Source: a virus
Strand: one strand, 5' to 3'
Length of the DNA stretch: 64,000 nt
Virus record (IMG/VR): IMGVR_UViG_3300043425_000861
The position numbers were made by a program, and so were the translations under genes. The notes beneath the pieces were generated by a model, which made no database searches, was not told the DNA's origin, and saw only the letters and a list, made by a program, of their open reading frames with translations. This document shows positions 60,563 through 63,858 of this stretch, one piece after another (within the stretch, counting starts at the first letter, position 1; every line of letters begins with the position of its first letter).

Positions 60563-60661
60563 ATGAGACAATTTACACATATTATGTCGTTTACAATCTG
60601 TTCAAAATGGGCGGATGAGCGTTCTATGTCTATATGTCTCGATGATACTGATGTTGGTTAA
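60563..60661 (+). CDS. Leader peptide 1 (32 aa), putative attenuator of tRNA cluster 1
   Basis: MRQFTHIMSFTICSKWADERSMSICLDDTDVG*; A-rich initiation context; codons match the downstream tRNAs. Confidence 0.75.
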   Translation: MRQFTHIMSFTICSKWADERSMSICLDDTDVG

Positions 60662-60724: not shown

Positions 60725-60797
60725 GGGCCGGATGTCAATGGCAGACCACCTGATTTGCAATCAGAGTGAAAGGGTTCGATTCCCTACGTGTCCACCA
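60725..60797 (+). tRNA. tRNA-Ala(TGC)
   Basis: Loop TTTGCAA, G3:U70, encoded CCA; imperfect acceptor stem. Confidence 0.75.
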
Positions 60798-62053: not shown

Positions 62054-62318
62054 ATAGGTGAAGACTGTGGTGGAAGCCCACGGTATATGAATCCCTAAAA
62101 GCTGTCTTGATTCGCGGTATCAAAGCGGTGCGGGTAGAGTTACATATAAGTCGGGAGTAATTAACCAATTGACGAAAATGTATCCACAGATATGGAGATA
62201 TATCTGTTATGATGTTCAAATGCGAACGAAAAACCTATAACTTATTGAGACTAACTCAACGAGGACTTTGTCAACCAGAGCAATGACTTGGATGGTGCAA
62301 CTTAAGGTGAGTTAGAAT
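62054..62318 (+). ncRNA. Unidentified structured RNA (about 265 nt)
   Basis: GC-elevated; nested helices ATAGGT/ACCTAT, ACTGTGG/CCACGGT, ACAGATAT/ATATCTGT, CTAACTCA/TGAGTTAG. Confidence 0.6.
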
Positions 62319-62325
62319 CAAAATT

Positions 62326-62569: not shown

Positions 62570-62626
62570 CAAAATAATTTTTAACTATTTACACTTTTTT
62601 ATAATTTGTGTATACTTATTAAAACG

Positions 62627-62734
62627 ATGAAGAATATAAATAACATATTGACGAGTACAAGACCACTTACAAATGGTAATGGGTATGGTGTGCAACCGTT
62701 ATGTTACTTATGTTCGGATATCAATAAAGGATAA
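62627..62734 (+). CDS. Leader peptide 2 (35 aa), putative attenuator of tRNA cluster 2
   Basis: MKNINNILTSTRPLTNGNGYGVQPLCYLCSDINKG*; codons match the downstream tRNAs. Confidence 0.75.
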   Translation: MKNINNILTSTRPLTNGNGYGVQPLCYLCSDINKG

Positions 62735-62761
62735 TAGAAAATTATTAAAACTTATATCGAG

Positions 62762-62791
62762 ACCCGAACACAAAAAATGTTCGGGTTTTTT
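62762..62791 (+). terminator. Attenuator terminator 2
   Basis: ACCCGAACA/TGTTCGGGT plus U tract. Confidence 0.85.
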
Positions 62792-62811
62792 GTTTTGTAA
62801 TTTTTTATCTC

Positions 62812-62837
62812 TATATTTGAAATAGGTTCTTTGACAT
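62812..62837 (+). promoter_or_regulatory. Possible promoter -7 element and boxA-like antitermination site
   Basis: TATATTTG (62812-19) followed by GTTCTTTGACAT, resembling rrn boxA. Confidence 0.5.
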
Positions 62838-62852
62838 ATTGGAATAACGAAT

Positions 62853-62936
62853 GCCGGAGTGTTGGAATGGTAGACAAGACAGACTTAAAATCTGTTGAGC
62901 TGAAAGCTCGTGTGGGTTCGAGTCCCATCTCCGGTA
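62853..62936 (+). tRNA. tRNA-Leu(TAA)
   Basis: ACAGA-CTTAAAA-TCTGT; long variable arm. Confidence 0.95.
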
Positions 62937-62976
62937 CAAACACTATCGTTCTTTGAAGATAAAGGAGAAACATAAT

Positions 62977-63225
62977 ATGGATATATTATCATTTATTTTA
63001 GGAATGTCTATAGTTGTGGTTATTGCGGTTGCAGTAGTTGCGGTTATAGCCTTTGTTAAGGTGAACAGACTAAACAAAGAGATTGAATCGATTCACACAA
63101 TTTATTCGGGTGAATTTGAAAGGGTTAATAGAGATAGAACAGATTCGGAAAGACAGATTTATTCTGTGTTAGATTCTCGACTTGATAAACTTGAAAGTAA
63201 AATAACAAATAGCCGTAAGGCATAA
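62977..63225 (+). CDS. Single-TM coiled-coil protein inside the tRNA array
   Basis: Likely start MDILSF; TM helix, then DSRLDKLE. Confidence 0.65.
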   Translation: MDILSFILGMSIVVVIAVAVVAVIAFVKVNRLNKEIESIHTIYSGEFERVNRDRTDSERQIYSVLDSRLDKLESKITNSRKA

Positions 63226-63263
63226 AAATTAAATAAAACTTTCAAAGACGATAGTGTTAATTT

Positions 63264-63335
63264 GGGCCCATAGTTAAAGGGATATAACTTCTCACTTCTA
63301 ATGAGATGTTCGTGGTTCGAGTCCACGTGGGCCTA
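63264..63335 (+). tRNA. tRNA-Arg(TCT)
   Basis: TCTCA-CTTCTAA-TGAGA. Confidence 0.93.
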
Positions 63336-63336
63336 C

Positions 63337-63476
63337 AAAGATAATGGTCTGATGTTATAATTGTTGTCGACTAACATTATAACTACTTAAACAGACAGCA
63401 CCCTCTGCCGATGCATCGTAAAACTATTACTAAGCAGTTAAGATTGGAACGAAACGGGTATTCCAACATTATCTTT
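63337..63476 (+). ncRNA. Unidentified structured RNA (140 nt)
   Basis: Closed by perfect AAAGATAATG/CATTATCTTT; internal GTCTG/CAGAC, GTTATAA/TTATAAC, CTGC/GCAG and TTGGAA/TTCCAA helices. Confidence 0.6.
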
Positions 63477-63480
63477 ATTT

Positions 63481-63554
63481 TGGGAATTAGCGTAGTCCGG
63501 TATCGCGCTTGGTTTGGGACCAAGAGGTCGTCAGTTCGAATCTGGCATTCCCAA
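63481..63554 (+). tRNA. tRNA-Pro(TGG)
   Basis: CTTGG-TTTGGGA-CCAAG. Confidence 0.92.
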
Positions 63555-63561
63555 CAAAAAT

Positions 63562-63633
63562 GCTGATGTAGCTCAACGGCAGAGCAATTGACTGTTAATC
63601 AATAGGTTGAGATATCGTAATTCTCCATCAGCG
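63562..63633 (+). tRNA. tRNA-Asn(GTT), atypical T-loop
   Basis: ATTGA-CTGTTAA-TCAAT; T-loop ATCGTAA. Confidence 0.85.
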
Positions 63634-63638
63634 CAAAT

Positions 63639-63720
63639 GGCCAAGTGGTGGAACGGTATACACGTATGTTTTAGAAACATATGTCAGAACGGCGTGAGAG
63701 TTCGAATCTCTCCTTGGTCA
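63639..63720 (+). tRNA. tRNA-Leu(TAG)
   Basis: TATGT-TTTAGAA-ACATA; long variable arm. Confidence 0.92.
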
Positions 63721-63766
63721 CGGAAAACGGTTTGTATGTATACGTTAGGTTAGGAATGTACAGAAT

Positions 63767-63847
63767 GGGAGTATCGCATAGCGGCAATTGCAGAAGACTG
63801 TAAATCTTCCCTCATCGAGTTCAGTGGTTCGAGTCCACTTACTCCCA
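63767..63847 (+). tRNA. tRNA-Tyr(GTA)
   Basis: GAAGA-CTGTAAA-TCTTC. Confidence 0.95.
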
Positions 63848-63858
63848 CAAAATAAAAT

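Follow-up and report, generated by a model that had tools for sequence, protein, structure and literature searches.

A putative leader-peptide attenuator ahead of a tRNA array in a large phage

Alternative pairings upstream of the second tRNA array

Why large phages carry arrays of tRNA genes, and how such arrays are regulated, are open questions. The locus described here raises them in a specific form: what is the role of a short open reading frame (ORF), followed by a terminator hairpin, placed in the middle of a tRNA array? The window, by which we mean the whole 64,000-nucleotide stretch analyzed (IMG/VR record IMGVR_UViG_3300043425_000861), belongs to a large phage genome and has a G+C content of about 32%. 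Among the proteins encoded are a T4-type major head protein and a large terminase, and promoter motifs of the Bacteroidota type (TAnnTTTG) are present. The tRNA array spans position 60725 to the window end, with 18 ARAGORN calls and one weaker Rfam call. Two candidate attenuator cassettes are considered here, and the second, our main subject, lies between tRNA-Glu (ending at 62570) and tRNA-Leu-TAA (starting at 62853). The visible part of array 2 (62853..63848; plus strand, as are all features of this cassette and array given below) comprises Leu-TAA, Arg-TCT, Pro-TGG, Asn-GTT, Leu-TAG, and Tyr-GTA. The content of the array past tRNA-Tyr is outside the window and was inferred from relatives, including two whose leader is identical to that of the window (L109 and L117). 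No close relatives were found among GenBank phages, with similarity at the tRNA level only. The relatives were drawn from IMG/VR and metagenome contigs, and the comparison set consists of 48 unique cassettes, of which 40 are distinct over the transcript.

Other elements of the locus were also recorded. An 82-amino-acid ORF with a hydrophobic N-terminal segment (62978-63225) is located inside array 2, and a terminator-like match at 63008-63049, which sits within its coding sequence, is probably spurious. The spacer separating tRNA-fMet from tRNA-Asp (62054-62325, about 270 nt) has no Rfam match. In relatives, a tmRNA gene is found a few kilobases past array 2 (L060, 2568-2964; L053, 1074-1483; L075, 892-1289; L048, 1721-2116; L015, 2842-3232), with tag peptides such as ...AGILATSNVAVA; none is present inside the window.

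The leader ORF of the second cassette has 35 codons (MKNINNILTSTRPLTNGNGYGVQPLCYLCSDINKG; 62627..62734) and closes with a TAA stop at 62732-34 (codon 36). The terminator that follows (62759-62796) is composed of a 12-pair stem, a 7-nt loop, and a U tract, with a predicted energy of -15.6 kcal/mol. Its 5' arm (GAGACCCGAACA; 62759..62770) constitutes strand 3 of the layout described below, and its 3' arm (UGUUCGGG...) together with the U tract (UUUUUUGUUUU) constitutes strand 4 (62778..62796). The sequence-only reading of this locus had pointed out that TGTTCGG (62711-17) is the exact complement of CCGAACA (62764-70) in the 5' arm, 46 nt away, and that it begins 12 nt past codon 24. We confirm both the coordinates and the spacing, with codon 24 (CCG) ending at 62698. 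The strand falls inside the ORF, at codons 29-31, a position that matters for the mechanism, and a second copy of TGTTCGG (62778-62784) forms the 3' arm of the terminator. An extension of this helix by GATAT/ATATC had also been proposed; it is not conserved, and we dropped it on account of its pairing of only 81% and the lack of convincing covariation. Absent from that reading was strand 1 (GAAUAUA; 62632..62638, codons 2-4), which completes a four-strand layout with helices 1:2, 2:3, and 3:4. Strand 2 (62709..62717, codons 28-31) pairs with strand 1 through UAUGUUC (62709-15) and with strand 3 through UGUUCGG (62711-17).

A complementarity of 7 nt might simply be a product of chance, or a functionless leftover of terminator duplication. 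The 7-mer is in fact not rare, with 6 copies against 4.9 expected (128 kb, both strands), and one match by itself is therefore no more than mildly surprising; the 100 nt preceding a given terminator would contain a copy with a probability of approximately 0.004. We take conservation across relatives, and not rarity, as what decides on a putative function. On this point the pairing is kept in 40/40 distinct relatives amid varying neighbor codons, and it includes a compensated change, which leaves a chance match very hard to sustain. The 7 pairs of helix 2:3 are 99.3% paired in the 40 distinct sequences, versus at most 48% with a slid partner, and at columns 101:160 the U-A pair is replaced by A-U in four distinct sequences and by U.G in three. 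Helix 2:3 has only these 7 pairs and a single varying position, at which L105 and L131 are mismatched. The GTTCGG portion of strand 2 is invariant, including its rare synonymous TCG (6% of the Ser codons of the phage), the only Ser codon used at this place across relatives.

The long-range helix 1:2 and the terminator were recovered by RNAalifold on the 48 sequences. Together they are 98% paired, with five pairs changed on both sides and a covariation score reached by none of 500 shuffles; within helix 1:2, three of the seven pairs show changes in both partners, and U.G intermediates occur. The two folds meet at the strand-2 column corresponding to 62711, which finds its partner either on strand 1 or, in the alternative fold, on strand 3. 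Most sequences carry A, U, A, and U, in this order, at columns 23, 101, 160, and 174; L099, L102, L147, L005, and L119 have U, A, U, and A there. As far as aligned sequences can tell, this joint change in four strands is the signature expected of alternative structures. It may represent a single evolutionary event, since the tree is poorly resolved, too poorly for any number of independent covariation events to be given.

Structure prediction yields the same alternatives. All 40 distinct full-length RNAs fold as 1:2 plus 3:4. When the 3' arm is absent and the first 11 codons are blocked, helix 2:3 forms in 40/40 RNAs, and the truncated RNA without blocking is bistable. The energies calculated for the window are -23.1 kcal/mol for the 1:2 hairpin, -12.4 for 2:3, and -15.6 for 3:4. 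A second inner stem present in the window fold (UAACAUA/UAUGUUA) is not claimed here, because it is broken without compensation in several relatives.

The sequence-only reading had further stated that the two cassettes share their architecture with no obvious sequence similarity, and had argued from this for function over chance. With respect to architecture the statement is correct. Attenuator 1 has an equal four-strand layout, in which GAGAC (60565-69) pairs with GUCUC (60636-40) and GUCUCGA with UCGGGAC, followed by the terminator; GTCTCGA (60636-42) and TCGGGAC (60691-97) are indeed 48 nt apart. Among relatives of attenuator 1, position 6 of strand 2 is A in about half of the sequences with partner U and in one sequence only (L072) with partner C. 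The lack of similarity was overstated. The leader C-terminal tails (window 62717-62734 in leader 2 and 60643-60661 in leader 1; tail-variant relatives L004/L125, L110, L130, L062, and L072) include the variants DINKG, DTHI, and DIILG in both families, and the cassettes are not fully unrelated, because these tail modules are common to both. The tails look homologous, and an argument from convergence finds no support. This suggests, from the peptide variants, that the cassette families exchange or inherit 3' halves, and part of their likeness is apparently explained by shared descent or exchange.

A tRNA-like gene with anticodon UGC (Ala; 60725-60794) begins about 5 nt past the U tract of attenuator 1, and this spacing leaves no room for a promoter there. 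The gene was missed by ARAGORN and scores 29.7 bits with Rfam. It has acceptor-stem mismatches and an encoded CCA end, and is 100% identical in L001.

Coding signature and codon content of the leader

The leader is preceded by a promoter region (62588..62616) with TTTACA-17-TATACT (a 10/12 match) and ATAATTTG. The latter (62601-08) aligns with the TAnnTTTG of relatives, to which the window is a near match only; an exact TAnnTTTG is located 17-20 nt upstream of the ATG in 28/48 relatives. The ORF itself is open in 48/48 unique cassettes, with a length of 34-36 codons. Indels within it are all multiples of three, those beyond the stop codon are of any length, and in the 48 relatives the T tract ends 53-61 nt past the stop codon. 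Synonymous changes are seen at Thr, Ser, Pro, Asn, and Gly codons, and the peptide core is kept at the amino-acid level. Given the open frame, the in-frame indels, and the synonymous changes, the leader looks translated; this is a coding signature only, from which translation itself is inferred.

In an alternative scenario, the region would specify a non-coding structured small RNA within the tRNA array, with an incidental ORF. Small stable RNAs are present in the tRNA region of T4, and the stable fold (z = -3.6), the covarying helices, and the many leader synonymous sites that are invariant in the aligned relatives would all fit such an RNA. However, a frame open in every cassette, with in-frame indels inside it and any length past the stop, and with synonymous changes at five kinds of codons, argues otherwise, and a non-coding RNA is not expected to match the codons of the array (see below). 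We consider this scenario improbable. No Rfam family was found for the leader region in a scan with E up to 1, which returned tRNAs and chance matches, a trpB-motif match with E = 0.94 being counted among the latter. T-box riboswitches, which bind tRNA directly and need no translation, resemble the cassette in that tRNA status is sensed and a terminator/antiterminator switch is used. This candidate was rejected, as the same scan (E up to 1) gave no T-box match.

The codons of the leader provide a link to the genes behind it. In the run of codons 3-25 (62633..62701), which we regard as the putative sensor, 23/23 codons fall in array-2 boxes and 13/13 tRNAs are covered. Codon 25 (TTA) is also part of the matched run, and codons 26-35 are mixed. 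The 13 tRNAs are those of array 2 in the 97%-complete relative G001, in the order Leu-TAA, Arg-TCT, Pro-TGG, Asn-GTT, Leu-TAG, Tyr-GTA, CAT, Val-TAC, Gly-GCC, Thr-TGT, Gly-TCC, Gln-TTG, and Ser-GCT. The two relatives with the identical leader, L109 and L117, have the same array order, with Gly-GCC not called. The best matches of the CAT tRNA are genes annotated as tRNA-Ile, and by this similarity it probably reads ATA. Among random 23-codon stretches of the phage's own genes, 23/23 matches were obtained in 121/200,000 and 13/13 coverage in 41/200,000.

The comparison between cassettes points in the same direction. The composition of the two leaders differs in parallel with the arrays behind each (Fisher p = 6e-5 for leader 1 versus leader 2 scored on array 1 versus array 2), and the matched codon fraction averages 0.76 for the own array versus 0.18 for the other-class array, the former being lowered because arrays are cut off at locus ends. 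Coverage of the detected downstream tRNAs by the sensor part is complete in nearly all cassettes; among those listed, three of type 1 and one of type 2 fall short by one tRNA each. Across relatives, leaders track array content, differing where tRNAs have moved between arrays. For example, a variant leader 1 (LTNITSTSNQLNWNEQP) precedes an array of Pro, Asn, Trp, Leu, Gln, Thr, and Ser, and a first array of Pro, Asn, Trp, Leu-TAG, Gln, Thr, Asp, Ser, and Glu is associated with leader 1 MRQLTNITSTSNQLNWNEQP... and not with ...FTHIMSFTICSKWADER. In L072, Ser-TGA resides in array 2, and leader 2 contains TCG and TCA codons, which the sensor part of its leader 1 lacks. We lean, if only slightly, toward the notion that tRNA supply in phages of this group follows demand: each array would be gated by a codon "pangram" of exactly its tRNAs, so that a shortage of any one would lead to resupply of the whole array.

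As regards codon choice, rare G-ending codons (GGG, GTG, CCG, ACG, TTG) are favored in the leader (62627-62701); their usage in the phage genes is 6-15% (ACG not tabulated). Both GGT and GGG are used, and the leader would by this means test the two Gly tRNAs separately.

The putative downstream promoter and leaderless relatives

Sixteen nucleotides past the U tract we found a promoter-like element, TATATTTG (62812..62819), with a -7 motif of the Bacteroidota type. The exact motif is present in 30/48 relatives and is also kept in relatives that have no leader. Adjoining it is a conserved box of unknown role, GTTCTTTGACAT (62826..62837), whose core TCTTTGA occurs in 46/48 relatives; the box is better conserved than the promoter motif itself.

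The module composed of the terminator and the TATATTTG motif occurs without a leader in L015, L016, L048, L052/53, and L060. It directly follows tRNA-Glu in L015. In the remaining loci (L016, L048, L052/L053, L060) a gene of 137-161 amino acids, apparently with a signal peptide, replaces leader 2 between tRNA-Glu and the same array-2 terminator. Array 2 of the leaderless L016, L048, L052, and L060, the arrays that were read, has only 3-5 tRNAs. The occurrence of the module without a leader indicates that the hairpin can act as a plain terminator. Judging from the position of TATATTTG past the U tract and from the leaderless modules, array 2 may not need read-through: it probably has its own promoter, and read-through would then add to a basal level.

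These observations bear on the scenario that the sequence-only reading had itself named as refuting: a constitutive terminator would end the transcripts of array 1 and the leader, and array 2 would be transcribed from the TATATTTG promoter at 62812 alone. The ORF would then function as a small gene, or else be translated as a sensor whose output lies elsewhere, for instance in RNA stability or in precursor processing, and the long 5'-3' helix would serve that purpose. A module that persists without a leader, a promoter motif exact in more than half of the relatives, and a peptide core conserved at the amino-acid level are all in line with it, and it cannot be excluded. Nevertheless, it leaves unexplained the complementarity of strand 2 to strand 1 as well as to the terminator arm, the coordinated four-column change, the invariance of the rare TCG codon, and the restriction of the leader to large arrays; the match between codons and tRNAs in turn indicates a link with the downstream genes. 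We view a constitutive terminator as rather unlikely, without dismissing it.

A proposed mechanism and its precedents

We favor the interpretation of the cassette as a ribosome-mediated transcription attenuator that gates read-through into array 2, which we consider likely on sequence evidence alone. This was the interpretation put forward from the sequence alone, and it survived every sequence-based check run, namely those of the ORF, helix 2:3, strand 1, the coupled column, and the codon match. At the level of sequence, five features expected of an attenuator are present: a leader ORF, a terminator, a mutually exclusive antiterminator, a sequestering strand 1, and cognate codons. A dependence of array 2 on read-through is put in doubt by TATATTTG and by the leaderless modules.

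In the mechanism that we propose, transcripts would begin at the leader's own promoter or come through from array 1. If the leader is not translated, strands 1 and 2 would pair, the 3:4 terminator would form, and transcription would stop at about 62796. Once a ribosome occupies the beginning of the ORF, strand 2 would be free. A delay anywhere in codons 3-25, each of which requires one of the 13 downstream tRNAs, would then let strand 2 pair with strand 3, and if this helix forms before strand 4 is made, no terminator would arise and the polymerase would enter the tRNA genes. With fast decoding, the ribosome would cover strand 2 (codons 28-31) in time and termination would follow. Three variable codons (26-28) separate the sensor run from strand 2, and this spacer fits the geometry noted earlier, in which a ribosome at codon 24 would leave the strand just clear. 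The 1:2 hairpin might also act as a pause site that synchronizes polymerase and ribosome, a speculation by analogy with trp. The phage would thus probably make more array-2 tRNAs when the leader codons are read slowly, a response that is inferred, as are the stalling logic, the kinetic race, and the cover of strand 1 by trailing ribosomes. This last point touches a difficulty of the model: with a ribosome stalled at codons 9-25, strand 1 is open to renewed pairing with strand 2, except where it is covered by trailing ribosomes. Loss of tRNAs, for instance through host anticodon nucleases or host shut-off, would stall ribosomes on the leader and result in resupply of the array.

The closest known arrangement is that of the leader-peptide attenuators of amino-acid operons, such as trpL, hisL, leuL, and thrL, and the multivalent leader of ilvGMEDA. 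The phage cassette shares with them a short leader ORF, exclusive 1:2, 2:3, and 3:4 helices, an intrinsic terminator, and regulatory codons matched to the supply that the operon provides. In contrast, it precedes tRNA genes and not enzymes, samples 13 tRNAs in 23 codons where those leaders have a run of one or a few codons, has its stop codon after strand 2 and not between strands 1 and 2, has a promoter-like element after the terminator, and is phage-borne. The pheST attenuator of Escherichia coli, with its leader pheM, is similar in that leader-peptide attenuation controls a component of the decoding machinery according to the supply of charged tRNA. However, it is a cellular system that controls a synthetase and senses a single tRNA species, whereas the phage cassette would sense 13 and control tRNA genes. 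Among phages, the promoter-early stem-loop (PeSL) cassettes of T4-type phages are reportedly modules of recombination or shuffling; they likewise combine a stem-loop terminator and a promoter recurring beside small exchangeable ORFs, but are not described as translation-sensing switches. A search of the full-text literature gave no publication in which tRNA genes are controlled by a leader peptide.

If our interpretation is correct, the cassette would represent a multi-input sensor of the tRNA pool, of a kind that is not known to have been reported for tRNA genes in any organism. With it, trp-style attenuation would reach beyond the enzymes of amino-acid synthesis to tRNA genes, and a compact translational sensor with many inputs would become available. 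Should the leader test every tRNA of its array, tRNA supply would be sensed and corrected on demand, which fits the idea that phage tRNAs counter host defenses that deplete tRNAs.
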